Positions 1,201 to 17,305 of a stretch of DNA of 61,280 bases are shown here, one piece after another. The translations under genes and the position numbers were made by a program. Source of the DNA: an uncultured archaeon (GTDB lineage Archaea; Asgardarchaeota; Lokiarchaeia; Sigyniarchaeales; SOKP01); assembly GCA_964583985.1 (NCBI GenBank), contig CAZOYD010000014.1, positions 1 through 61,280 of the forward strand, given 5' to 3'. How positions within the stretch are numbered: the stretch's first letter is position 1; every line of letters begins with the position of its first letter. The notes under the pieces were generated by a model, which was not told the origin of the DNA, did no database searches, and saw only the letters and a program-made list of their open reading frames with translations.

Positions 1201-4200
1201 ATGGGAAAAGGAAATTTTGATAAGCAAGTATTAACCAGATTCGTTCAAACAGAATGTAAAAGACAACTTTTTTTGGATTTATCTCAAACACGACCAAAAC
1301 TCTGGAGAGATCCAAATAGATTGCTAATGGATCCTAAAGTTATTCGACGAAGTTCAGATAATCTAATAAAATTAGGTCAGCGATATGAACAATTAGTATA
1401 TAGCCATTTGATTAATTTTAAAGAAGCAATTTATCAATTAAATTCAAATAAAAATGTAAAAAAATCTTACCTTAAACCAATTATATTATTAAACTTGTAT
1501 AATCAAAAAGACCAACAATCCTGGGTATTATTGGAGCATCAATATCGAATTCCTCCAAGTTTTTTTTTCAATCATTTTTTCTTTCGATCCAAAACTAACA
1601 CAATTCCTTTTTTTTGGGCTAAACAAAGACCTGATATAATAATTATTCGTCGTGAAAAGGATTTAACAATTCAACTGAATGAACTTTTGACAGATGGCAC
1701 CATCCGTGCTGTTCCAAAAGAAGAACTCAAAACAAGATGTAGCATATCAATCATTGATATTAAGAATATCAGAGATGAAAACATTGGTAAGAAGCAATTT
1801 ATTGAAATTTTATATTATATGTTCACATTATCCCACTTCTTAAAAGAATATGATTTATCGTCCAAGTTTTTTGTAAGTATTGAATTTAATGGTATTCTTG
1901 CTCGTTTAAACGAAGGGGAGATTCTCAAGATAAAAACCATTGAGAATCTCATCGCTGAAATCATACTTGTAGATTGGGAAGAATCTAATATAATAATTAA
2001 GGATTTAATCTCTCAAATAAAGAATTTATGGAAATTAGCACCATGTTCGATTGAGGAAATACCTGTTAACATACAACCTAATTGCGGATACTGTTATTTT
2101 ATTGAAGATTGCAAAGATTCACTCGGGAAGGATGGAAAAAAATCTCCTAATGAATGGGATCTAGCGTTAATTCCTTATACCACTATGTCTATTGCTCAAC
2201 AATTAAGAAATGAATATGATTTTTCTACAATAGAAGACGTTGCAACGAGGGTTAGGTCTATTAAAACTGGAGATACTCCTAATCCAATCTATTCAGAACT
2301 ACCCCTTTTGGAACTTAAAGCTAGAGCATTGATTGAGGGTAAAATCATACAACCAAAACCTGGAGATATTCATGCATATTTTATACCAAAATATTCAGCA
2401 ATCGGAATAAGTCTTGCTATAGAGACTGACCCTGCAAATCAACGAGTTTATGCTGCTGGATTATTTCTATTTATGTCAGTTTTTTCTAAAGCACCATACA
2501 GTCGTATATATGACAATTGGTGGAGAATATGGAAAGAAGGGATCGATAATTTAAAATCAAATGAAGAAATTCAATTGAAGTTAAATGAACATCTGATTCA
2601 TGAAATACCTCTTCATGTAGTAACCGAGTTTCGGGAATATCTAGAAAAATTAAAACTTAGCAGAACAATTTATCTTGCTGGGGATAAAAAATCAGATGGT
2701 GCAATAAGAAAAAAAACTGTTGTACTATATCAATTTGCAAATATCAATGAAGGAGATTCTGATGAAACTGAGGGAAGATTCGCAGAAATTATTATTTTAC
2801 GATTATATTATTTATTGGAAATGTGTAATATCATCGAAAATTATGTAGTAATTGATGCAAAAGAAGCGGGTAAATATTATGGACCCGCAACAAGTTTATT
2901 TTATTGGTCTAAAAGACAATTGAATAATTTCCAGGATATGCTTGAAAGAAATTTAAATTATATAATCAATAACAAAGAAGTAGCAATTGCTTTTGATTCA
3001 ATATTATCGTTATTTACACCGTCAGACTCTGAAGTAGCTCATCCTTATCAACATAAGAAATTATTTAATGTACAAGAATTTGCAGAATCAGTTTTCGGCT
3101 TTCCCAGTATTATCTCATATACTTGGCATAAAATAGCTAAAAAAGAATTTGGAACTTATGTCAATAAGAAATATTGGATTCCTCATTTTAATTACATGGA
3201 CTTTAATAATTGGTATGATTACATTTTAGAGGATGAGGATGAAAAGAAAAAAAAGGATATAAAAGATGAAATTAAAAGGCAAGTTATGTTTAAAGTTCGA
3301 GCGATAAACTCCTTGAGAAGCAAATTTCAAGATGAATTTAGTAATATTATATCCAAGAATGTAAGAGTTATTAACAAAACTCAATTTGATAGTATTTTTC
3401 TTAGTCCTGAATACCACCCAATTAGCCAGGTGTGGTATTTATTCTCCAAATATACTGGCGCTATGGAAGAAATGGATACAGAATATTTTAGGACTACTTT
3501 TCCTGAATTTAGTATTGGAAAACTTGCTGCGGCTCAAGTGGAAGATTTGAAAATATGGAGTGCAACAGGAAAGAAAAATATATGTGATTTTAAAATTACT
3601 TCTCTATCCAGTAATATGAATATTAATCCAGGAGATCGTGTGTATTTACTCCCCGATAATGAGAGGGATGCAAACACAATATCAAAACTCGAACAATGGA
3701 AAATAATCATCAGAGAGATGATCTGGGATCCCAAAATTAATGGATATCTTGTTTTTTCACAAGAAACAAATAGTAAAAAATTAGAAGAATATAAAGGAAT
3801 TGAAGATCATTTTTCTTGGTTTTTATATCATACATCATTAGATGTTTGGTCAAATAAATTATATAAAAAAAATGGATTATTAGAGCGATGTGATTTAGGT
3901 AAATCTTGGTTGGGATTTAGACTTTCCTACTTGTGGAAAATAAGATCAAAGCAAGAATTATATTGGCCATATACTTGGGAGTTTTCAACACCCTCTATTT
4001 ATTTATATTTACCCGAAGTAATCTCTTCTCTTAAAACGGATCTTAGCAAAGATCTCAATTCAAAATTAATAACACCAATAAATCCCATTCCAGATGAGTC
4101 TCAAGTTATAGCGATTAATAATTCTCTAAATAATGTTATCTCTGGAATTCAAGGTCCTCCTGGAACGGGAAAATCTCAAACGATTGCTGCGTTAATTGAT

Positions 4201-5673
4201 GAATATTATGAGAGATGTCTTCGTAAGGGGAAGAAAAACGTTAGAATCTTAGTTACTTGCTTTTCTTATGCGGCTTTAAAAGTTGTTTTAGATAAAATTC
4301 GAATAGGAAAAGATAAATCAAATAATCCAACTAAATCATCCCATTTACAGCTGATTTATTTAAGATCAGAATACCAGAAACAAATTGAACGAAAAAAAGG
4401 ATGTCGAAATGTTGATGATTTGCTTAGAAAAGGAGTCTCTTGGAAATTAAATGGAAAAACACGAACAGTAACCAATAAAATCCATCTGGAAGAATCCCTT
4501 GAAAAAAGTTTTATTCTTTTTGCTAATGCTCACCAATTATATCACTTAGTAGAAAGAGTTGACCCAGAATTCGCATTTGATTTAATAATTGTTGATGAAG
4601 CTAGTCAAGTTCCTATTCATTACTTCCTATCAAGCTTACAATTCATAATAAAACAAAATATCAAATTAAAAACAAAGGGCTCTCCAGGGGAACTTGGTAC
4701 TTTAATCAAAGATGAGAGCCTTATTAAAGAAATTGAACTTGAAGATAAGCTCGATCCCGAAACATTAACGAAGATTATAATTGTTGGAGATTTTAATCAA
4801 TTACCTCCTGTACAACCAGTTAAGCCACCTAAGAACTTAGAAATTATCCTTGGTAGTCTATTTACTTATTATGTCAGACAACATAATATTTCTAATATTC
4901 AATTGAAAATAAATTACCGTTCACACCAAGATATTGTTGATTTTACATCTACTTTATGTTTATATGAAGATATTACCCCGTATAAGGAAAACGCGCAAAA
5001 ATTATTAGAAGGAATAATTAATAAAGAAGAAGTATCCTGGATTAAAAGTATATTAGATCCACAAAAAGTTGCATCTGTTATCGTGCACGATAGAAAATAT
5101 GAAATTGGAGTAAGTGCTCTAGAAGCAGAATTAGTATCTAAGCTTGTAATCAGTTACTTCAATATGAAGTGTCCAAAAACTAAAAAGGAAGAAATCAGAT
5201 TCTGGAAAGAAAATCTGGGAGTTGTTGCACCCCATAATGCTCAAGGTCGCTTGATTATAAGAAAGATATTTGATAGACTAACCGATGATATGGAACGATT
5301 AACAAATTTAGAAAATACTGAATTAATGAGGAGGTTGCGAAATACTGTATATTCTGTTGAAAAATTCCAAGGGTCTGATAGAGATATCATCATCGCATCC
5401 TTTGGTTTATCCGATAAAGACCAATTAGATGCTGAAAGTGAATTTATCTATAATTTAAATAGGTTTAATGTGCTGACTTCTCGGGCTAAATACAAGCTAA
5501 TATTAATAATGAGTAAAAAGTTTCTAGGGTTCATACCTAATGATAGAGATATCATGACTCAAGCATCTCATATTCGGAAATATGCATATTCCTTTTGTAA
5601 TGAGGAAATGATAATTACGATATTAAATGAAAAAAAGGAAAAAGAAACAATAGTATATAGATATAAAAAATAA
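1201..5673 (+). CDS. Fe-S PD-(D/E)XK nuclease fused to SF1B (Upf1/Dna2-like) helicase; TM0106/Dna2-like architecture
   Basis: N-terminal C19 plus CGYCYFIEDC (C295/C298/C304); RPD...IIDIKN...EILYY nuclease motifs; helicase motifs QGPPGTGKS, LVTCFS, IVDEASQ, VGDFNQLPPV, INYRSH, VEKFQGSDRD, NRFNVLTSRAK. Confidence 0.85.
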   Translation: MGKGNFDKQVLTRFVQTECKRQLFLDLSQTRPKLWRDPNRLLMDPKVIRRSSDNLIKLGQRYEQLVYSHLINFKEAIYQLNSNKNVKKSYLKPIILLNLYNQKDQQSWVLLEHQYRIPPSFFFNHFFFRSKTNTIPFFWAKQRPDIIIIRREKDLTIQLNELLTDGTIRAVPKEELKTRCSISIIDIKNIRDENIGKKQFIEILYYMFTLSHFLKEYDLSSKFFVSIEFNGILARLNEGEILKIKTIENLIAEIILVDWEESNIIIKDLISQIKNLWKLAPCSIEEIPVNIQPNCGYCYFIEDCKDSLGKDGKKSPNEWDLALIPYTTMSIAQQLRNEYDFSTIEDVATRVRSIKTGDTPNPIYSELPLLELKARALIEGKIIQPKPGDIHAYFIPKYSAIGISLAIETDPANQRVYAAGLFLFMSVFSKAPYSRIYDNWWRIWKEGIDNLKSNEEIQLKLNEHLIHEIPLHVVTEFREYLEKLKLSRTIYLAGDKKSDGAIRKKTVVLYQFANINEGDSDETEGRFAEIIILRLYYLLEMCNIIENYVVIDAKEAGKYYGPATSLFYWSKRQLNNFQDMLERNLNYIINNKEVAIAFDSILSLFTPSDSEVAHPYQHKKLFNVQEFAESVFGFPSIISYTWHKIAKKEFGTYVNKKYWIPHFNYMDFNNWYDYILEDEDEKKKKDIKDEIKRQVMFKVRAINSLRSKFQDEFSNIISKNVRVINKTQFDSIFLSPEYHPISQVWYLFSKYTGAMEEMDTEYFRTTFPEFSIGKLAAAQVEDLKIWSATGKKNICDFKITSLSSNMNINPGDRVYLLPDNERDANTISKLEQWKIIIREMIWDPKINGYLVFSQETNSKKLEEYKGIEDHFSWFLYHTSLDVWSNKLYKKNGLLERCDLGKSWLGFRLSYLWKIRSKQELYWPYTWEFSTPSIYLYLPEVISSLKTDLSKDLNSKLITPINPIPDESQVIAINNSLNNVISGIQGPPGTGKSQTIAALIDEYYERCLRKGKKNVRILVTCFSYAALKVVLDKIRIGKDKSNNPTKSSHLQLIYLRSEYQKQIERKKGCRNVDDLLRKGVSWKLNGKTRTVTNKIHLEESLEKSFILFANAHQLYHLVERVDPEFAFDLIIVDEASQVPIHYFLSSLQFIIKQNIKLKTKGSPGELGTLIKDESLIKEIELEDKLDPETLTKIIIVGDFNQLPPVQPVKPPKNLEIILGSLFTYYVRQHNISNIQLKINYRSHQDIVDFTSTLCLYEDITPYKENAQKLLEGIINKEEVSWIKSILDPQKVASVIVHDRKYEIGVSALEAELVSKLVISYFNMKCPKTKKEEIRFWKENLGVVAPHNAQGRLIIRKIFDRLTDDMERLTNLENTELMRRLRNTVYSVEKFQGSDRDIIIASFGLSDKDQLDAESEFIYNLNRFNVLTSRAKYKLILIMSKKFLGFIPNDRDIMTQASHIRKYAYSFCNEEMIITILNEKKEKETIVYRYKK

Positions 5674-5683
5674 AAATAATTAA

Positions 5684-7243
5684 ATGATTATAATGGAACC
5701 GATGAAATTCGTTCATGTGTCCGACCTTCATCTCGGTAAAAAGCAATATAATTTAAAAGAAAGATATAATGACTATTTCCGAGTTTTTCAATGGGTTTTG
5801 GATTTTGCTATTAGTGAAAAAGTGGATTTTGTATTAATATCAGGAGATCTATTTGATAATAAAAATATTAATCCCTCCGTTCTGAGTGACGTATTTTATT
5901 TAATTAAGGATTTTAAAGAAAGGAGTTCTTTAGAATTAAACATTGAAATTCCAATAATATGTATAGAAGGAAATCATGACAATCCCATTTATAAAACTAA
6001 TTCATGGATGAGTTTTTTGGCAGATTTAAATCTCATCATCTTGCTTGCTGGAAGTTACGATAAAGATAGTAAAGAATTAACTTTTCAACCATATTCTACT
6101 TCAAATCATAGAGGTGGAATGATCCAAATTAAAGACGCCATGATATATGGTCTTCCCTATTATGGAAGTTTTACTAAACATTTGTTTCCCGCAATTTATA
6201 AAGCAATTCCCAAAAAAAATAATAAATTCAACATTTTATTGATGCATTTCGGTATTGAAGGCCAAGATAAAACGAAGCCAGGAATTGAGTTAACTCCTAA
6301 TCTTAAAAAATTACATGATAAAATAGATTATTTAGCTTTGGGTCATTATCATAAGAATTATACATTAGAAGAACAAGATAAATGGATATTTAATCCAGGA
6401 AGTATAGAATTGAATGATCTTAGTGAACTTTCTTATAATAGAGGTGCCTTTTTAGCAGAAATATCTGGAAATGAATATTACCAAAAGAATTTAAAATTTA
6501 TCGAATGTGATAATGGGAATAAAGATCCTAACAAGATTCCAAACAGGGAATTTTTTCAAATTCGCCCAATAAATATTACAGGAATGAGCTCTTTTGAAAA
6601 CGCTATGGAGCACATATTTAAAAGATTGAAGCAATATGGATTGCCACTTCGAGATGAAAATAAAGAGATAAATAAGAGTGATTTAAATTGTCCAATTGCC
6701 ACATTTAAAATAGAAGGCGAAGTGGGATTCTCTCGATTAGAAATCAATTTAAACAAGCTGAAAGAAGAAATAATGCAAAGATACGCAATTTTAGATATTC
6801 GAATTTCTTCTAAAGAGTTATTTTCTGCTTTAGATTTAATAAAAATCGAAGAAGAAGAATTGACTATTGATGCAATCGAACGTATTGTGTTCAGCGCTTT
6901 GATAGATCAGAATGAAGAGTATAAATCCTTAAAACCAGAAATCCTTAGTTTAATAGACGATTTCAAGACCGAGTTGATATTAAAAAAGCCAAATTATATG
7001 AAATTAAAAGAAGAACTGATTCAATGGAGTGAATTAAATATTAATGATTTTAAAAAACTCGATATTAAAAAGAATAAACCTATCAGTGAGAGTCCTGAAT
7101 TATCTAATCTTGAGAAAATGAAAAATGAAGATTTTAAAAAAGAGATTGAAGGTGAAGAAGAACAAGATTTTGGTGATTATGATGATTTCGATGATCTTGA
7201 TAGTTTTATAGATGATGGTTTCGATGATTCTGGAGATGATTGA
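5684..7243 (+). CDS. mre11: Mre11/SbcD family DNA repair nuclease with acidic C-terminal tail
   Basis: Phosphoesterase motifs SDLHLG, GDLFD, GNHD, MHFG, LGHYH, NPGS; directly upstream of Rad50/SbcC. Confidence 0.92.
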   Translation: MIIMEPMKFVHVSDLHLGKKQYNLKERYNDYFRVFQWVLDFAISEKVDFVLISGDLFDNKNINPSVLSDVFYLIKDFKERSSLELNIEIPIICIEGNHDNPIYKTNSWMSFLADLNLIILLAGSYDKDSKELTFQPYSTSNHRGGMIQIKDAMIYGLPYYGSFTKHLFPAIYKAIPKKNNKFNILLMHFGIEGQDKTKPGIELTPNLKKLHDKIDYLALGHYHKNYTLEEQDKWIFNPGSIELNDLSELSYNRGAFLAEISGNEYYQKNLKFIECDNGNKDPNKIPNREFFQIRPINITGMSSFENAMEHIFKRLKQYGLPLRDENKEINKSDLNCPIATFKIEGEVGFSRLEINLNKLKEEIMQRYAILDIRISSKELFSALDLIKIEEEELTIDAIERIVFSALIDQNEEYKSLKPEILSLIDDFKTELILKKPNYMKLKEELIQWSELNINDFKKLDIKKNKPISESPELSNLEKMKNEDFKKEIEGEEEQDFGDYDDFDDLDSFIDDGFDDSGDD

Positions 7244-9903
7244 CAAATATGATAATAACAAAAGTAGAACTCGAAAATATAACGACACATAAATCCACCG
7301 TTATAAACTTTCAAGACGGATTAAATGTCTTGCTTGGTCAAAATGGTACTGGTAAATCTACAGTGCTAAATATGATTGGATTTAATTTATTTGATTTCTT
7401 GCAGGGAAATCAGAAAAGTTATATTCGTGAAGATGTTTTGAATCGCACTAATTATGGGAGTATAAAGGTCTGGATTGTAGGATTAAATGATGATCAATAT
7501 ATTATTAATAGGACAATTGGGAAACAAGCAAATATTATTGAAGTCTCTGATGCTAAAACAGGTACTTTATTAGCGGGTATTAATGACAAATCAAGCTTAA
7601 GGCAATGGTTAAAATCTCAAATTGGATTAAAGCGTGAATTCAATTTATCAAAAATATTTAACACGTCTGTAGGCGTCCCTCAAGGCACGTTTACTGAGCC
7701 ATTTCTAAGATCCCCTCAAGGTCGGAAAGATTTCTTTGATCCTATTTTGCAGGTCGAAGTATACAGGGCCATATGGACAAAAATTAAGGCACTCCAAAAT
7801 TCATTTATTGAGGATATTCATCAATTTGAAAAAGACGCTCAAAACATAAAAGGATTTATAGAAAACAAAGAAGATTTAATAAAGAAAGCTGATAATGCAA
7901 AAGCAAATTTGGAACATTTAGAAGAAAATGAAAAAAAATTACAAATTCAATTGAAAAAGGTGAATGAAAAACACGATACTCTATCGAAACTTAAATTGGA
8001 TTTAGAGGAAGTTATTCAATCTATTAAAGAGTTAGACGGAAAAAGAAAAGAACTAATTTCATGGATAAAAGAAAAAAAGGAAGATCTTAAAAAAGCAACA
8101 GAATCGAATGAGATATGTCGCAAAACTAAAAAGCATTATGATGAGTATGAGAATTTGAGTCAAAAATTGAACAAACTTAGTGATATTATTGAACTTGAAT
8201 CAAAAATTGAACACAAACTTCAAGATATTGATAAAATTGAATCTTCTGCAAAAGATTTAGATAAGTTCAAGCTTGATTATAAAAAAGATATTGAATTGCA
8301 AAGCAAAATCCAGGAAAAACAAGAGTTAATATCACAAATTAATAACTTTAGAAATCAAATGAACGAATATAGAGATAAATACACAGATCTTAGTAAAAAA
8401 ATCGACGATAAAGAAAAACTTGTAAGTAATTTTCCAGAAATTGAATCAATGGTAACTAATCTTGAGAAAATTCTTGAAAGTCAAGGGATTTTAGAAAATG
8501 AAATCATAGTGTTAGAAACAGAATTAAAGCAATTTGAGATTAATAAAGAACAGTCCAAAAATGGGAAATGTCCTATTTTAAATGAAAAATGTAAAAATAT
8601 TGAAGGAAAATCACTTGAGAAGATTTTTGAAAAGAAAATCGAAACATGGAAGAAAAACCTAAATCCAAAAAAGAAAGAATATTTGGAAAATGAAAAGAAA
8701 TTGATAAAATTTGAAGCTATAAAGAAAGAATACGAAACTCTTAAGGGGTCCAATTTAGAAATAGAGCTTCTTAAGAAACAAAAGCTAGAGATGGGGCGTG
8801 AGATCCAAAAAATCAGCAATAATCTAAAAGATGAAACTATTGAGAAAGAAATATTAACCAATCTGAAAGAAACTAAGAAATCTTTGGAGGAAAACATAAC
8901 ACAATATCATATCCTAAAAGAAAAAATCGAAAAAGATTTACCGAAATTATCTGATGAGGTAAAATTGTTACAAAAGGAAAAAAATATATTAATTAAAAAC
9001 TTAAGTTTAACGAATGAAGGTAAAGATTCTTCCGAAAATTTCTCTACAACATTTAATTCAATCACGGACAAAATGAATGAAATCCGAGAAAATCATGATG
9101 AATTTCAAAAAAATGAAAAACTTGCTATGGAATTGCCAGAACTTAAAATTGAGTTAAATGATTATGAGGAGAAATTAAAAATCAATGAGGATAAGCTAAA
9201 AATTCTGATGGAAAATAGGGAAAAAATCGAAAAAGAATTTGATATTGAGGAATATAACAGAATTACAACACAAAAAGAAGAAATTAATGAATCTTTTATT
9301 AGAGTTCATGAAAGCATTAAAAATGAGAGTAATAGGATCGAAGAATTATCACATCAAATAGATGTTATTTTTGAAAAAGAGAAGGAATTATTCGAAATTA
9401 ATGATAAATTAGATAGCTTAGAATTTTTAGAGAAATTCATCGATACCATCAGAACATGGTACAAAGAAGCATCTCCCATCATTACTGAATCACTCCTAAA
9501 AAGAATAAATTTAATCGCTTCAGATATTTATCGTGACTTATTAGACATAGAGAATGTTCAACTAAGGTGGGACAAGAATTATAATGTTAAAATCGAAACA
9601 AGCAATAGTGTAAGGGAATTTCGTCAATTATCTGGAGGAGAACAAATGGCTGCTGCTCTTGCGGTGCGCCTTTCTATTTTAAAAATCCTTACAAATGCAG
9701 ATTTTGCTTTTTTCGACGAACCAACAACGAATTTGGATAAAGATAAACGCAACAATTTAGCTAAATGCATACAAAATATCAAGGGTTTTCGTCAAATATT
9801 TGTGATTTCTCATGATGATACGTTTGAAGAGAATGCTGAAAACGTTATTAGGTTCACTAAGGATGATGATGAAATAACCCACGTGCAATTTCTAAGTAAT
9901 TAA
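7240..9903 (+). CDS. rad50: Rad50/SbcC SMC-family ATPase (alternative in-frame ATG start at 7249)
   Basis: Walker A GQNGTGKST, Q-loop GVPQG, long coiled coil with central CPILNEKC, LSGGE, Walker B FDEPTTNLD, ISHD. Confidence 0.92.
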   Translation: MTNMIITKVELENITTHKSTVINFQDGLNVLLGQNGTGKSTVLNMIGFNLFDFLQGNQKSYIREDVLNRTNYGSIKVWIVGLNDDQYIINRTIGKQANIIEVSDAKTGTLLAGINDKSSLRQWLKSQIGLKREFNLSKIFNTSVGVPQGTFTEPFLRSPQGRKDFFDPILQVEVYRAIWTKIKALQNSFIEDIHQFEKDAQNIKGFIENKEDLIKKADNAKANLEHLEENEKKLQIQLKKVNEKHDTLSKLKLDLEEVIQSIKELDGKRKELISWIKEKKEDLKKATESNEICRKTKKHYDEYENLSQKLNKLSDIIELESKIEHKLQDIDKIESSAKDLDKFKLDYKKDIELQSKIQEKQELISQINNFRNQMNEYRDKYTDLSKKIDDKEKLVSNFPEIESMVTNLEKILESQGILENEIIVLETELKQFEINKEQSKNGKCPILNEKCKNIEGKSLEKIFEKKIETWKKNLNPKKKEYLENEKKLIKFEAIKKEYETLKGSNLEIELLKKQKLEMGREIQKISNNLKDETIEKEILTNLKETKKSLEENITQYHILKEKIEKDLPKLSDEVKLLQKEKNILIKNLSLTNEGKDSSENFSTTFNSITDKMNEIRENHDEFQKNEKLAMELPELKIELNDYEEKLKINEDKLKILMENREKIEKEFDIEEYNRITTQKEEINESFIRVHESIKNESNRIEELSHQIDVIFEKEKELFEINDKLDSLEFLEKFIDTIRTWYKEASPIITESLLKRINLIASDIYRDLLDIENVQLRWDKNYNVKIETSNSVREFRQLSGGEQMAAALAVRLSILKILTNADFAFFDEPTTNLDKDKRNNLAKCIQNIKGFRQIFVISHDDTFEENAENVIRFTKDDDEITHVQFLSN

Positions 9904-10022: not shown

Positions 10023-10355
10023 TTATCCCAATTCGTATTTCTCCATTAATGGCTCAGTCTTCCTCATTTTTTTCATCCTGTATGCTTTAGTCATTTTGAA
10101 CTCTATAAGATATACCACTATGGAAATAACCAGAAGCACAAATACGCTGATTGTCATAGGATTTATAAAGACCCTCATATAATATTCCACCACCTGTGCT
10201 ATTTCTTGAGGACTATAACTCTGCATATATTGTTGCAACTGTTGGATGAATGAAACAATTGCTATAGTCAATTGTGCTATTACAAAACCCATAGCAAAAA
10301 GGATGTATTTATATAAATTAAAAGTCATTTTTTCCATTTTTATCACCCTCACCAA
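10023..10355 (-). CDS. Small membrane protein (2 TM), hypothetical
   Basis: Two hydrophobic helices; fills the intergenic gap. Confidence 0.6.
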   Translation of the reverse strand: MVRVIKMEKMTFNLYKYILFAMGFVIAQLTIAIVSFIQQLQQYMQSYSPQEIAQVVEYYMRVFINPMTISVFVLLVISIVVYLIEFKMTKAYRMKKMRKTEPLMEKYELG

Positions 10356-10642: not shown

Positions 10643-11158
10643 ATGCAAGAAACCATTTCTTTAGTAATTGGATATTTAGGATTACTCATTATTATTTTTA
10701 TTACTTATTTAGTAATTAAGAAAAAAAGAGCGAATGGAAGCAAAAAAAAACCAAAAAACGAACAAAGTCAATCCATCCAAATTAAAAAATATACTTGTTT
10801 AGATGGTCATTTGGTCAAATCTAAAGGAGAGTTAATAATTGATAATTACTTGTATTTGCTGAAAATAGATCATAAATACGAAAAATCTATCTATATATTT
10901 GGTTCAAAAATTAAATATGATTGGTATCTGCCAAAATACGATATTTATATTGAATATTGGGGTTTTGGGGGTAAAAATTATGAAAAACGGAAAAAAGAAA
11001 AACTACGATTATACAAAAAGGCGAATCTCAAACTTATTTCCATAGAAAATTACATGTTTTATGACATTTACTTAGAAATGGATAATTTATTGAAAAAATT
11101 TATTGATATTAAAAGGTTAAAGAAAATTGTAAGTTTGAACAATTATATTTGTAATTAA
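10643..11158 (+). CDS. Membrane-anchored PD-(D/E)XK-like nuclease-fold protein
   Basis: N-terminal TM helix followed by a basic stretch, then GHLVKSKGELIIDNYL...YEK...YDWYL...IYIEYWG...YEKRKKEK. Confidence 0.65.
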   Translation: MQETISLVIGYLGLLIIIFITYLVIKKKRANGSKKKPKNEQSQSIQIKKYTCLDGHLVKSKGELIIDNYLYLLKIDHKYEKSIYIFGSKIKYDWYLPKYDIYIEYWGFGGKNYEKRKKEKLRLYKKANLKLISIENYMFYDIYLEMDNLLKKFIDIKRLKKIVSLNNYICN

Positions 11159-11194: not shown

Positions 11195-12379
11195 TTATTT
11201 TAAGAAATTCTCAATTTGATCATAAACTTCAGTTAAAATATTGATATCTGGTAAAAATGTCAGCCTAATATGACCTTTTCCAAATTCTCCAAAACCAGAG
11301 CCATAAACCGAGCAAACGCCTGTTTCTTTTAATAAATCTATTGCAAAATCTTTGTCATTATCCCATCGATTAAACTCATTAAGCTCAACTTTAGGGAATA
11401 AATAAAATGCACCATTGGCATTAACACAACTAATTCCTTCAATTTTGCATATTCTATCATAGGAATAATCTCGTCTTTCTTTTAATTTTCTCACTAATTC
11501 CTTTGTATGGTCACTTTTTGTCCTGAAGATTTCAATTGCTGCATATTGTGCAATCGTACTAGCCGATAATCTTGCTCTCGCCATTTTTGCCATACCTTCT
11601 TTAAGTTCGGTTAATTTATGTTCTGGGTCATGATAGTATAAATATCCAAGTCGCCAACCTGTCATGAGATCGGATTTAGAAAAACCATTCATTCCAATTA
11701 TTGGAACATCTTTACTGAGCGATGCTGGACAGACGTATTCCTTTTCGTAGGTAATTTGGTCGTAGATTTCGTCTGAAAGAATTGGTAAATTATATTCTCC
11801 AGCTAGATCTATTATTTGTTTGACTTTATTTTGCGAATACAAGACACCAGTAGGATTATTTGGAGAACAAATAAGAATACCTTTAGTTTTTTTAGTGATC
11901 TTTTTACGCATATCCTCAATATTTGGATCCCATCCCTCTTTTTCATCTAATTCGTATTCGATGGGAATTCCATCATAAAATTTAGTATTATTAATATATA
12001 ACGGATAAGTTGGACCTGGAATGAGAAATTCATCTCCTCTTTCTATCAACGCTGCAAGAAGAAAATAAATTCCTTCAGTAACTCCCGTAGTGATTAAAAC
12101 ATCTTCACTATTTACATTTAAATTCTTTTTATTCTTCAAAAACTTGCTAATTTCTTCCCTTAATTCAATTACTCCTAAAGAATCTGCATAGAAATTCTTC
12201 CCATTATGACTAGCTTTTGCAAGAGCATCGGAAATAAATGGAGGTGTTATAAAATCATATTTTAACGGATCCCCAATATTTAATTTGTAGACTTTTTTCC
12301 CTTTTCGTTCTACTTGATCAGCTATCACTGCTATATCTCGTATAGCATATTCAATATCATTTACTCTTCTAGATATCAT
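11195..12379 (-). CDS. PLP-dependent aminotransferase class I/II (alanine aminotransferase-like)
   Basis: LNIGDP, SPNNPTG, SDEIY, NGFSKSDLMTGWRLGY, GAFY. Confidence 0.92.
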   Translation of the reverse strand: MISRRVNDIEYAIRDIAVIADQVERKGKKVYKLNIGDPLKYDFITPPFISDALAKASHNGKNFYADSLGVIELREEISKFLKNKKNLNVNSEDVLITTGVTEGIYFLLAALIERGDEFLIPGPTYPLYINNTKFYDGIPIEYELDEKEGWDPNIEDMRKKITKKTKGILICSPNNPTGVLYSQNKVKQIIDLAGEYNLPILSDEIYDQITYEKEYVCPASLSKDVPIIGMNGFSKSDLMTGWRLGYLYYHDPEHKLTELKEGMAKMARARLSASTIAQYAAIEIFRTKSDHTKELVRKLKERRDYSYDRICKIEGISCVNANGAFYLFPKVELNEFNRWDNDKDFAIDLLKETGVCSVYGSGFGEFGKGHIRLTFLPDINILTEVYDQIENFLK

Positions 12380-12503: not shown

Positions 12504-12872
12504 TTAAAGTTGAAATTCTCTATTTCTTAACTTTGAAACAAGATGCCCTCTCGAGAGCAGCTGAATTCCAAATTGAGAACTATAATCGCGAGAAAAGTCT
12601 GTACTGATGTTACACACCATTATACCTCCTTCTAATTCAGGAACATCAATACATGCTTTATGTAATTGTCTTAATTGAGTGATTGAGATTTCTCTTTTCC
12701 AATCTCTGATAAATATTCCAAATCTACCAAATTTTCCGCTTTTTACTACAGCATTGAACGTCCAAGTTTTCCCTGAATTCCCTTTTAGAGTAGTGGGACC
12801 TTTTTCAAAATTATATTTCTCAGAAAATACTTTTTCTGCTAGTTCTTCTAAAGAGGCATCTGAAAATTCCAT
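12504..12872 (-). CDS. Mrr-like restriction-endonuclease-fold protein, catalytic residues apparently lost
   Basis: LKGNSGKTWTFNAVV...GIFIRDWKREISITQL...GGIMV...FGIQLL follows the Mrr_cat layout, but D and ExK are replaced. Confidence 0.55.
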   Translation of the reverse strand: MEFSDASLEELAEKVFSEKYNFEKGPTTLKGNSGKTWTFNAVVKSGKFGRFGIFIRDWKREISITQLRQLHKACIDVPELEGGIMVCNISTDFSRDYSSQFGIQLLSRGHLVSKLRNREFQL

Positions 12873-13056: not shown

Positions 13057-13896
13057 TCAAAATGACTCAAGCAATTTATAAAGAGGATATTCTCCATCGA
13101 CTTGTAATCCTTGCGATTTCAAAATTTTAACCAATTTTTCCTGTAAGAATCCTACTATTTCATGGGAGACCTTGACACATGTGTTTCTGCACTCAAAATA
13201 TCTATCGGGAAGGAAATTGCATTCTGGACTGACTTGAAGACAAATTTTTTTCATTTGAAACGATAATCCTTCAGCAGAGAGAATTTCAAAGTGATCCCAC
13301 CCATCTTTAAATCCTCCTATACTACTTGGAGGTACGGATTCAATTGTTTCTTTTAAATTATTAAATAGACTTTGATAATCTGTTCCATTTTTTATTCCGA
13401 TTCTTTTAGATATCTTAGCACATTCTTTCCTTGCTTCTAATTGACAAAGAAATACATATTTTTTAAAAAGATTTTCAGCTTCTAGGGTTTTTTCAGGGTC
13501 AATTATTTTCCAACCAGTTAATCTTTTACAATTAATACTCTCGTTTTTTGGATTTGAAAAATTTGTTGGATATATCCAACATTGTGGGGGCTTGATTCCA
13601 GAATTATGTATTCTGCAGCCATTTATTTGTTTATCAAAAAAAAAACATTTTCCAGTTTGTTCATTAAATCTTAAATGAAAACTAAAAATATTACTCCGGA
13701 CAAAATCACTTTCACTAGCTAATGATTTATTGATGTATTCTTTTGCTAAAACCTTTGGTACATCAATTTTAATTGAACAACAATCCCCTTTACATAAATC
13801 AGGATTTGTACAATTAGGGCCTTCAATTGCTTCCCTCATTAATGTGTTGAATCGCTTAATTATATACCAATATAATTGGTAACGAGGCTTTCTCAA
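13057..13896 (-). CDS. YkgJ-like cysteine-cluster (Zn/Fe-S) protein
   Basis: CxxxxxCxxxCC, CFFFD, CRIH, KPPQCWIYP. Confidence 0.75.
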   Translation of the reverse strand: MRKPRYQLYWYIIKRFNTLMREAIEGPNCTNPDLCKGDCCSIKIDVPKVLAKEYINKSLASESDFVRSNIFSFHLRFNEQTGKCFFFDKQINGCRIHNSGIKPPQCWIYPTNFSNPKNESINCKRLTGWKIIDPEKTLEAENLFKKYVFLCQLEARKECAKISKRIGIKNGTDYQSLFNNLKETIESVPPSSIGGFKDGWDHFEILSAEGLSFQMKKICLQVSPECNFLPDRYFECRNTCVKVSHEIVGFLQEKLVKILKSQGLQVDGEYPLYKLLESF

Positions 13897-16219: not shown

Positions 16220-17305
16220 TTGTACAAATTGCATGCTCGCGAAAGATATCTTGCAATATATGATGATTATTTACGTTTAAAGGTTGATAAAGTACCTAAG
16301 TTCGTACAATACGTAAGAGATGAATTCATTAGAAAGAATCAAACTGAATTTTCACATACATCATTAATTAATCCTATAGCTAATGCTTATTTTGAAGTTC
16401 CATTTAGTCTCGGATTCGATGCGGTTTTTGCTCCATTTCCTTTAAGTGTGAAGATCAAAGCCACTCAAATTAAGATAGAAAATGGCAAAGAGGTGAGGAT
16501 TGGAGAGGATGGTCAAGGAAAAAAAAAGAAAACCACTTATTATGAAAGAGGATATATTCATTCCCTGGAAATACTCGATAAACTTCGAACAAATATGAAA
16601 ATCATTGATCGGAGAGATTTGATATTAAAAACTATCAGAAATTATGAAAAATTGGGTAAAATGATCTTTCCTGTTTTGATGGTGGATGGTATATTCGATA
16701 GAGTTTGGAAGAGCATGGGAATGGAAATTTTTAGCCGAAATTATAAAAAAAACACCAAGTTGTATCAAGAATTAATTCAATTCTATGCCAATATAACTCG
16801 CATAAATATCGAATGCTTGCTTAATGCAACCGGTAATCGTGGAGGTGTCTTAAATGTATTAGACGATGTGGCATTTAAAGGAAGGACAATAATTTCTCCA
16901 GAGCGGTGGAATCGAGATTTTTGCCCTTTTTATCGTGAAATAACGGCGATAATTAAAGATAGCGGTTTTATCCCCCAAATGCACTCGGATGGAGATGTTA
17001 CCGAATTAATTCCTTCCATCATAAAAGCGGGTTTCCAAGGACTGCAAGGATGGGAAGGAGGGAGCAATCCTTATTATATTAATGATAATTTTCCAAATTT
17101 TGTTGTCATCGGATTTGGCGATGTTAGTCATATTCTACCTTATGGAAATAGTGAACAAATAATCCATCACGTTAAAGATCTAATGAACGCTTTAAAAGAA
17201 AATCGTCATTTCATAATAGGTCCAAGCACGGTCATCCATGAAATGATTCCCTTAAAAAATGTAAAACTTTTCATCTCTTCTGCTGAAAAATTTGGGAAAT
17301 ATTAA
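16220..17305 (+). CDS. Uroporphyrinogen decarboxylase / MtaA-CmuA superfamily protein
   Basis: DDVAFKGRTIISPERW, MHSDG, LPYGN, FIIGPS; TTG start. Confidence 0.8.
   Translation: MYKLHARERYLAIYDDYLRLKVDKVPKFVQYVRDEFIRKNQTEFSHTSLINPIANAYFEVPFSLGFDAVFAPFPLSVKIKATQIKIENGKEVRIGEDGQGKKKKTTYYERGYIHSLEILDKLRTNMKIIDRRDLILKTIRNYEKLGKMIFPVLMVDGIFDRVWKSMGMEIFSRNYKKNTKLYQELIQFYANITRINIECLLNATGNRGGVLNVLDDVAFKGRTIISPERWNRDFCPFYREITAIIKDSGFIPQMHSDGDVTELIPSIIKAGFQGLQGWEGGSNPYYINDNFPNFVVIGFGDVSHILPYGNSEQIIHHVKDLMNALKENRHFIIGPSTVIHEMIPLKNVKLFISSAEKFGKY

Follow-up and report, generated by a model that had tools for sequence, protein, structure and literature searches.

A nuclease-helicase gene in one operon with mre11 and rad50 in Lokiarchaeia: a probable DNA end-processing module at a site shared with herA-nurA clusters

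What does a helicase fused to a nuclease do beside Mre11 and Rad50 in an archaeon? The question is raised by a stretch of 61,280 nucleotides (the window), positions 1-61,280 of the forward strand of contig CAZOYD010000014.1 (C14) in assembly GCA_964583985.1, from an uncultured archaeon that GTDB places in Asgardarchaeota; Lokiarchaeia; Sigyniarchaeales; SOKP01. Near its start, three co-oriented genes encode a nuclease-helicase of 1490 amino acids (P0001), Mre11 and Rad50 (Table 1). An earlier note, made from the letters of this DNA alone, had described the three genes as closely packed, and the open reading frames (ORFs) and their junctions were found as claimed: the nuclease-helicase gene and mre11 are 10 nucleotides apart (5674-5683), and mre11 and rad50 overlap by 4 nucleotides or are separated by 5, according to whether rad50 starts at TTG or ATG. 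Its assumption of an Asgard origin is also supported, as the closest homologues bear the names Promethearchaeota or Lokiarchaeota. The source genome (G000) has a size of 3.8 Mb in 138 contigs, a G+C content of about 30% and a completeness score of 100%. We consider it probable that the operon encodes a machine for processing the ends of DNA double-strand breaks (DSBs), in which the 1490-residue protein takes the role of the HerA translocase and the NurA nuclease beside Mre11-Rad50.

A Rad50 model search of the window's genus found two classes of Rad50, one of 887-912 amino acids, which covers the whole model, and one of about 700 amino acids. The long form was found in G000, G241, G242, G246, G251, G255 (twice), G267 and G270, and the short form in most other species, where it sits in nurA-herA-mre11-rad50 clusters of two sequence types, H1 and H2, with a divergent NurA (Pfam E 6e-6 to 0.05). 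Among the 41 species of the genus, about 10 have the trio, 13 have H1 and 16 have H2. The trio and a herA-nurA cluster were found together only in G242 and, as a fragment, in G253, and the five genomes with neither the trio nor H1 nor H2 are 70-92% complete. No orthologue of the H1 or H2 cluster was found in G000. Furthermore, the aminotransferase gene downstream of the trio in the window has a counterpart (68-78% identity) that directly adjoins nurA-herA-mre11-rad50 in G262, G234 and G242 (loci L078-L080). In G234 (L080), the next three genes of the window (12504-12872, 13057-13896 and 16220-17305) are also matched, with 52-78% identity, and in G242 (L079) there is one further match, to the gene at 12504-12872 (76%). 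All three modules (the trio, H1 and H2) thus adjoin the same aminotransferase gene, and within the genus one chromosomal site is occupied either by herA-nurA-mre11-rad50 or by nuclease-helicase-mre11-rad50. This either-or occupation of the site is the strongest argument that the 1490-residue protein does the job of HerA and NurA. The claim that the system lacks HerA and NurA holds for the locus, where neither gene is present, but not for the genome, since G000 encodes a stand-alone NurA (contig C2) and a HerA-like gene (contig C1) away from the trio. The congener G250 carries several nurA-herA-mre11-rad50 clusters, and a gene for an OLD-family ATPase/TOPRIM protein (AAA_15, AAA_21, OLD-like_TOPRIM) lies between the nurA and herA of one of them (L077:12849-14678, minus strand).

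The earlier proposal depended on conservation of the trio in other genomes. In a scan of species-representative genomes we found 66 loci of the nuclease-helicase gene, and in about 26 Lokiarchaeial loci, including those of Promethearchaeum syntrophicum MK-D1, Lokiarchaeum ossiferum and Harpocratesius, mre11 and rad50 come after it. The three genes stay together even where the N-terminal 960 residues of the large protein are only 36% identical. No conserved flank was found across the trio loci, and no flanking gene was common to more than four of them; as the flanks vary within the linked clade, the trio itself is the conserved unit. In a maximum-likelihood tree of the large protein, bacterial and Asgard sequences are separated with a support of 99, and linkage to mre11-rad50 marks one Lokiarchaeial clade, in which 26 of the 29 members are linked; the three exceptions include two on cut contigs. 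None of 500 shuffles of the labels matched the observed clade linkage. The gene stands alone in Heimdall/Kari lineages, in a second Lokiarchaeial paralogue clade and on Myxococcota/Bradymonadales contigs (G+C 0.62-0.73), and among these stand-alone homologues a conserved partner gene was seen only in close relatives.

The N-terminal half of the protein was detected in 50 of 399 Asgard genomes (f1, the family of the window, 25/133; f3, 9/14; f15, 10/12; none in f13, f16 and f19). Within the window's genus, 6 of 40 congeners have the large gene, and in some lineages it is near-universal (f3, 9/14; g6, 4/4; g7, 2/2; g13, 5/7), with a Mre11 match in 12 of the 14 genomes of f3. Among 1.84 billion cluster representatives, 448 relatives of the N-terminal half were found (320 at E 1e-10). 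A second tier consists of bacterial proteins of about 1400-1570 amino acids, for example from Deinococcus yavapaiensis, which share only the first 420 positions and the helicase. Myxococcota, Bradymonadales and Polyangiales contigs of high G+C carry full-length homologues (L041, L042, L044, L046, L053, L056-L058, L062, L070 and L072), and the position of the bacterial clade as sister to all Asgard sequences implies an old inter-domain transfer. We found no description of the trio in the papers that were searched, although such an absence is not proof of novelty.

P0001 is the only Upf1-like helicase that was detected in G000 by phmmer. Pfam matched only AAA_11 (3.2e-13) and AAA_12 (1e-20), at residues 965-1439, and the helicase motifs GPPGTGKS, DEASQ, QLPPV, NYRS, SVEKFQGS and RFNVLTSRAK are nearly invariant across the homologues. 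For residues 1-960, no family was found in Pfam (P0001 and 28 homologues), NCBIfam or PADLOC; the enzyme family, with about 320 cluster representatives at E 1e-10, is uncharacterised. An AlphaFold model of these 960 residues (predicted local distance difference test score, pLDDT, 81; predicted template modelling score, pTM, 0.77) was compared with 48,161 PDB chains by VIA-align. Foldseek against the PDB gave nothing at E 0.001 for this model or for one of 330 residues, and the usable domain matches come from VIA-align only. Residues 1-309 within the large model matched Cas4 (7mi4_A, Z 9.4). When the nuclease domain was folded alone (AF2 model, pLDDT 91), Cas4 was again the nearest structure (7mi4_A, Z 10.7, 191 aligned residues, root mean square deviation 4.7; 8d3l_I, Z 9.3), followed by mouse Dna2 (5ean), AdnAB, Exo5 and MGME1 at Z of about 7.2-7.4 and AddB at Z 6.4. 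For residues 1-330, the ESM Atlas gave PDDEXK_1/Cas4-type clusters at 0.92-0.94, which is a lead only. The cysteines C19 and C295-x2-C298-x5-C304 and the nuclease residues E112, D145, D186 and K188 are invariant in 24-29 archaeal and bacterial homologues. Thus, the protein had been correctly described as a four-cysteine PD-(D/E)XK nuclease fused to an intact helicase of superfamily 1B (SF1B): the cysteines (C19 and CxxC-x5-C), the catalytic residues and the helicase motifs are all conserved. The model TIGR03491, for RecB-like nucleases of the TM0106 family, did not match P0001 at E 0.01, and a six-frame search of G000 with it at E 10 gave no match on C14:1201-5673.

Between the nuclease and the helicase, residues 398-770 best matched the exonuclease domains of family-B polymerases (Z 11.4-11.7, about 182-195 residues aligned), and next MrfB, ExoI, TREX1 and RNase T (Z about 8.5-10). 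In this DnaQ/DEDDh-like domain, E408, D410, E546 and H662-x4-D667 are essentially invariant. Its motif I reads A-I-E-T-D in P0001, with the first aspartate replaced by alanine; this aspartate is retained in 5 of 26 members linked to Mre11-Rad50, 7 of 15 unlinked archaeal members and 7 of 11 bacterial members. As the motif I aspartate is lost but the other residues are conserved, the domain is non-canonical and cannot be called dead. Residues 773-879 matched SETX (8ftm_B, Z 9.2), Sen1 (8ram_O, Z 8.9) and Upf1 (2gjk_A, Z 8.1).

The Mre11 of the trio was identified by Pfam (Metallophos) and by NCBIfam models for Mre11 (1e-25 to 1e-28, under the equivalog cut-offs; Mre11_Pyroc, 3.4e-28). Among 19 trio Mre11s, D14, H16, D55, N97, H98, H188, H221 and H223 vary little or not at all, and phosphoesterase motifs I-V are present. 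An acidic C-terminal tail is found in nearly all trio-type Mre11s. It is missing from the Mre11s of the H1 and H2 clusters, from a stand-alone Mre11 paralogue of about 400 amino acids and from the Mre11 of Promethearchaeum, whose operon is split. SSB, whose tail binds ExoI, is a precedent for a docking peptide, and it prompted the idea that the acidic Mre11 tail is a candidate docking peptide as well. A prediction of the complex between P0001 residues 1-870 and Mre11 residues 390-519 was run without controls and scored 0.00, which counts neither way on binding. The stand-alone paralogue is encoded in G000 at C8:37144-38328 on the minus strand (L074:5145-6329); it is 37% identical to the trio Mre11, has no adjacent Rad50 and has orthologues in most genomes of the family.

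The trio Rad50 matched SMC_N/AAA_23/SbcC_Walker_B in Pfam and, over positions 1-867 of 878, the archaeal Rad50 model NF003034 (1.1e-54; 186 bits, under the equivalog cut-off of 700), and it is the only full-length Rad50 of G000 by this model. Of 23 full-length trio Rad50s, 21 have a hook of the form CP-x5-C; the pair from Harpocratesius has CPVC/CPLC, and the short Rad50s linked to herA-nurA (H1 and H2) have a CxxC hook. The rad50 gene of one Lokiarchaeial subclade is followed directly by another SMC/Rad50-like gene (about 850 amino acids, AAA_23; L023:17459-19978, L027:19110-21701, L028:19129-21645 and L065:19092-21632). A similar gene for an SMC/Rad50-like protein of 843 amino acids is present on contig C110 of G000, together with a VWA protein (L081).

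With the domain content, the conservation of the catalytic residues and of the trio, the shared locus and the complementary distribution observed as described above, the biochemical activities, polarity and protein contacts that we infer would fit together as follows. Mre11-Rad50 would recognise and open the DNA end. The SF1B motor would then load on the 5'-terminated strand and travel 5' to 3' into the duplex, and the moving motor would feed the 5' strand to the N-terminal Cas4-like iron-sulphur (Fe-S) nuclease, so that RadA would receive a 3' tail. The DEDDh-like domain might trim or hold the 3' strand, and its activity may be reduced in P0001, since the motif I aspartate is an alanine. The acidic tail of Mre11 may serve for docking. 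A more far-reaching version of this proposal is possible, but we regard it as tentative. According to this version, Lokiarchaeia evolved, independently of Dna2, an enzyme with three activities in a single polypeptide (a 5' nuclease resembling Cas4, a 3' exonuclease module of the DEDDh type and an SF1B motor), which docks on Mre11 through the acidic tail D-L-D-D-Y-I-D-D to form one holoenzyme; the cassette would have been exchanged with herA-nurA-mre11-rad50 at a fixed site, and the enzyme family would be shared by Asgard archaea and Myxococcota.

Several observations weigh against a dedicated end-processing machine. The large gene is solitary outside Lokiarchaeia, and thus it does not need Mre11-Rad50. 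In P. syntrophicum MK-D1, the operon is split by genes for an oxidoreductase-like protein and a CitMHS transporter (L030:14968-17581). The trio is patchy, with two copies in G255, and it diverges strongly within the genus, where the N-terminal 960 residues are 42-81% identical and Rad50 is 35-73% identical. Related genomes are non-independent samples, so that the complementarity of the trio and the herA-nurA clusters is not a formal statistic. Finally, the stand-alone NurA and the HerA-like gene in G000 mean that the replacement of HerA-NurA may be partial.

One possible alternative, which we consider unlikely but more serious than the others, is that the trio is an accessory system against plasmids and viruses, or a dual repair and defence system like RecBCD/AddAB, in which Rad50 and Mre11 recognise the ends of invading DNA and the nuclease-helicase degrades it. 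The patchiness at the species level (6 of 40 congeners, 25 of 133 genomes of the family and 50 of 399 of the phylum), the two copies in G255 with the strong divergence within one genus, and the variable genomic context would be expected of such a system. The alternative modules also resemble exchangeable cassettes, into one of which the OLD-family nuclease is inserted. Moreover, the best PADLOC matches were to defence proteins (MkoA and DpdJ for the helicase and LmuB for Rad50), at the domain level only, and the gene of Bad, an enzyme of bacteria that resembles Dna2, adjoins a methyltransferase gene (PMC7430649). However, the trio holds the only full-length Rad50 of G000, and it lies where congeners have a repair operon. 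It is flanked in the window by metabolic genes, for a cyclase and an aminotransferase, and no integrase, restriction-modification or cas genes were found in its flanks. The matches to defence models of PADLOC and NCBIfam did not extend past single domains (for ProA, 35 bits where the cut-off is 1500), the gene is near-universal in some lineages, and its tree largely tracks the taxonomy. The suggestion in the earlier note that the system acts against mobile genetic elements is thus weakened by the metabolic flanks, the sole Rad50 and the replacement of a repair operon, and the patchy species distribution still fits it.

Less probable still is that the nuclease-helicase has a job of its own, for example at stalled forks, flaps or gaps, which its stand-alone Heimdall and Myxococcota relatives would display, and that its adjacency to mre11-rad50 reflects co-regulation and not a joint machine. 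The homologues in Heimdall/Kari, the second Lokiarchaeial paralogue clade and the Myxococcota relatives do without Mre11-Rad50 or any other conserved neighbour, and the split operon of Promethearchaeum also agrees with separate jobs. On the other hand, the operon structure is conserved over a deep clade with genes that overlap or nearly so, the Mre11 and Rad50 of the trio type carry lineage-specific features, and the exchange of position with herA-nurA speaks for modules that are equivalent.

Eukaryotic Dna2 has the same succession of domains as P0001, from an Fe-S PD-(D/E)XK nuclease through a barrel to an SF1B helicase, and DNA2 is nominally the top PDB sequence match of the family profile (2.4e-16), at 61.4 bits for mouse DNA2, 58.9 for IGHMBP2 and 53.7 for Upf1; nevertheless, we dismiss as very improbable the idea that the trio protein is the Asgard orthologue or ancestor of Dna2 and that the eukaryotic MRN-Dna2 pathway descends from this operon. 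The Pfam model Dna2 (PF08696) did not match P0001 or its 28 homologues even at E 1, and a six-frame search with it found nothing in G000 or in the 133 genomes of the family (f1, 0/133). It does match in 59 genomes elsewhere in the phylum (f13, 31/31; f15, 10/12; f16, 11/22), in proteins of about 970-1030 amino acids with Dna2, PDDEXK_1 and AAA_11/AAA_12. One of these Dna2-type proteins matched mouse DNA2 at 1.4e-53 and 185 bits, compared with 61 for the profile of the trio family; its scores were 171 bits for IGHMBP2 and 128 for Upf1. Both kinds of protein occur in f15 (10 of 12 genomes each) and in L. ossiferum, and phmmer with P0001 missed the Dna2-type proteins at E 1e-3. In addition, P0001 has a DEDD-like fold of about 370 amino acids inserted between nuclease and helicase, and its nuclease domain matches the structure of Cas4 (Z 10.7) better than that of Dna2 (Z 7.2). 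The Asgard proteins of about 1000 amino acids are thus likelier candidates for Dna2 than the 1490-residue family, and the presence of true Dna2-type genes elsewhere in Asgard genomes is a warning against taking the layout of P0001 for Dna2 ancestry. Of the proposed Dna2-like resection module, what is supported is a conserved operon of Mre11-Rad50 with a nuclease-helicase that replaces HerA-NurA at the locus, and what is not supported is a kinship with Dna2 beyond the layout. A RING finger (zf-RING_2, E 4e-5 to 6e-4) forms the C-terminus of three of the Asgard Dna2-type proteins (L096:3890-6871, plus strand; L097:1990-4902, minus strand; L098:4534-7521, minus strand), which have about 970-1000 amino acids and match Pfam Dna2 and AAA_11/AAA_12, L096 also PDDEXK_1. 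To our knowledge, a fusion with a RING finger has not been reported for eukaryotic Dna2.

A probable end-processing operon of this kind bears on how the archaea most closely related to eukaryotes resect DNA breaks. What took the place of HerA-NurA on the path to eukaryotes is a question posed in a 2026 review of NurA (PMC13748450), and in Lokiarchaeia a fused nuclease-helicase beside Mre11-Rad50 is already found in exchange for HerA-NurA. The three interchangeable modules at one site amount to a natural experiment, for which P. syntrophicum and L. ossiferum are cultured carriers.

Table 1. Positions of the trio genes, their domains and motifs, and the genes downstream (positions in the window).
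Feature	Position	Strand	Description
Nuclease-helicase gene (P0001)	1201..5673	+	ORF, 1490 amino acids; TAA at 5671-5673
Cas4-like PD-(D/E)XK nuclease with four-Cys Fe-S "staple"	1201..2130	+	Residues 1-310; structure match, invariant residues
DnaQ/DEDDh-like 3'-5' exonuclease fold	2392..3510	+	Residues 398-770; structure match
Beta-barrel like domain 1B of Upf1/Sen1/SETX	3517..3837	+	Residues 773-879; structure match
SF1B (Upf1-like) helicase core, all motifs	4078..5550	+	Residues 960-1450; Pfam, motifs, profile
mre11	5684..7243	+	ORF, 519 amino acids
Acidic C-terminal tail of Mre11	7151..7240	+	Motif D-[LF]-D-D-[YF]-I-D-D; alignment of trio Mre11s
rad50	7240..9903	+	887 amino acids with TTG start at 7240; 884 with ATG start at 7249
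Rad50 hook CPILNEKC (C-x6-C)	8569..8592	+	Coiled-coil apex; non-canonical vs CxxC
Small ORF	10023..10355	-	Between rad50 and aminotransferase gene; no Pfam match
Small ORF	10643..11158	+	171 amino acids; between rad50 and aminotransferase gene; no Pfam match
Aminotransferase gene	11195..12379	-	Synteny anchor; 68-78% identity to cluster-flanking gene in three congeners

A homologue of the 171-residue ORF lies directly 3' of rad50 in the closest relative (L008:14053-14610). A scan for promoters and terminators gave results no better than shuffled sequences; the consensus used is bacterial and the host is an archaeon.

Among known systems, Cas4 (PDB 7mi4, 8d3l and 4ic1) is the best structural match of residues 1-310, with the same arrangement of four cysteines and the same catalytic residues. 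However, the Cas_Cas4 model (PF01930) does not match P0001, the neighbourhood is free of cas genes, and in P0001 the domain is fused to a helicase. The TM0106 family (TIGR03491), in which a Cas4-like nuclease is joined to an RNase H-like domain, has a two-domain layout that is alike by fold. Prometheus (ProA, NF058533) and Hhe (NF042953, 29 bits against a cut-off of 2000) were considered as identities of P0001 and rejected, as both matched only around helicase motif I. Prometheus/ProA has been reported in Lokiarchaeia, and its layout, DUF4011-helicase-nuclease-DUF3320, has a domain order unlike that of P0001 (PMC13700489). Bad is, like P0001, a prokaryotic fusion of an Fe-S nuclease with an SF1B helicase and sporadic in distribution, but its gene is described as a neighbour of a methyltransferase gene and not of mre11-rad50.

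Eukaryotic Dna2 (mouse DNA2, PDB 5ean/5eax) shares with P0001 an Fe-S-stapled PD-(D/E)XK nuclease that precedes the barrel and the SF1B helicase in the chain. Both have a link to Mre11-Rad50, Dna2 a functional one (MRN/MRX, in long-range resection) and P0001 through the operon. P0001 differs in its weak and apparently non-specific helicase similarity, in having no match to the Dna2 model and in the extra DEDD-like domain. AddAB, AdnAB and RecBCD likewise combine a helicase with nuclease domains of the RecB type (in AddB with an Fe-S staple) and act on DSB ends, with related nuclease folds, and they serve both repair and the degradation of foreign DNA; in Bacillus, addAB adjoins sbcCD. P0001 differs from them in being one polypeptide with an SF1B and not an SF1A motor, and in having a second nuclease-type domain of the DnaQ and not the RecB-type fold; we know of no Chi-type regulation in its family. 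The herA-nurA-mre11-rad50 operon of Sulfolobus, Pyrococcus and Thermococcus likewise combines a motor and a nuclease with Mre11-Rad50 in one operon. There, a hexameric FtsK-like HerA works with a separate NurA, whereas in the trio a monomer-type SF1B helicase is fused to two nuclease-type domains, and the trio is further distinguished from the herA-nurA-linked genes by a Rad50 of 887 and not about 700 amino acids, the C-x6-C hook and the acidic tail of Mre11.

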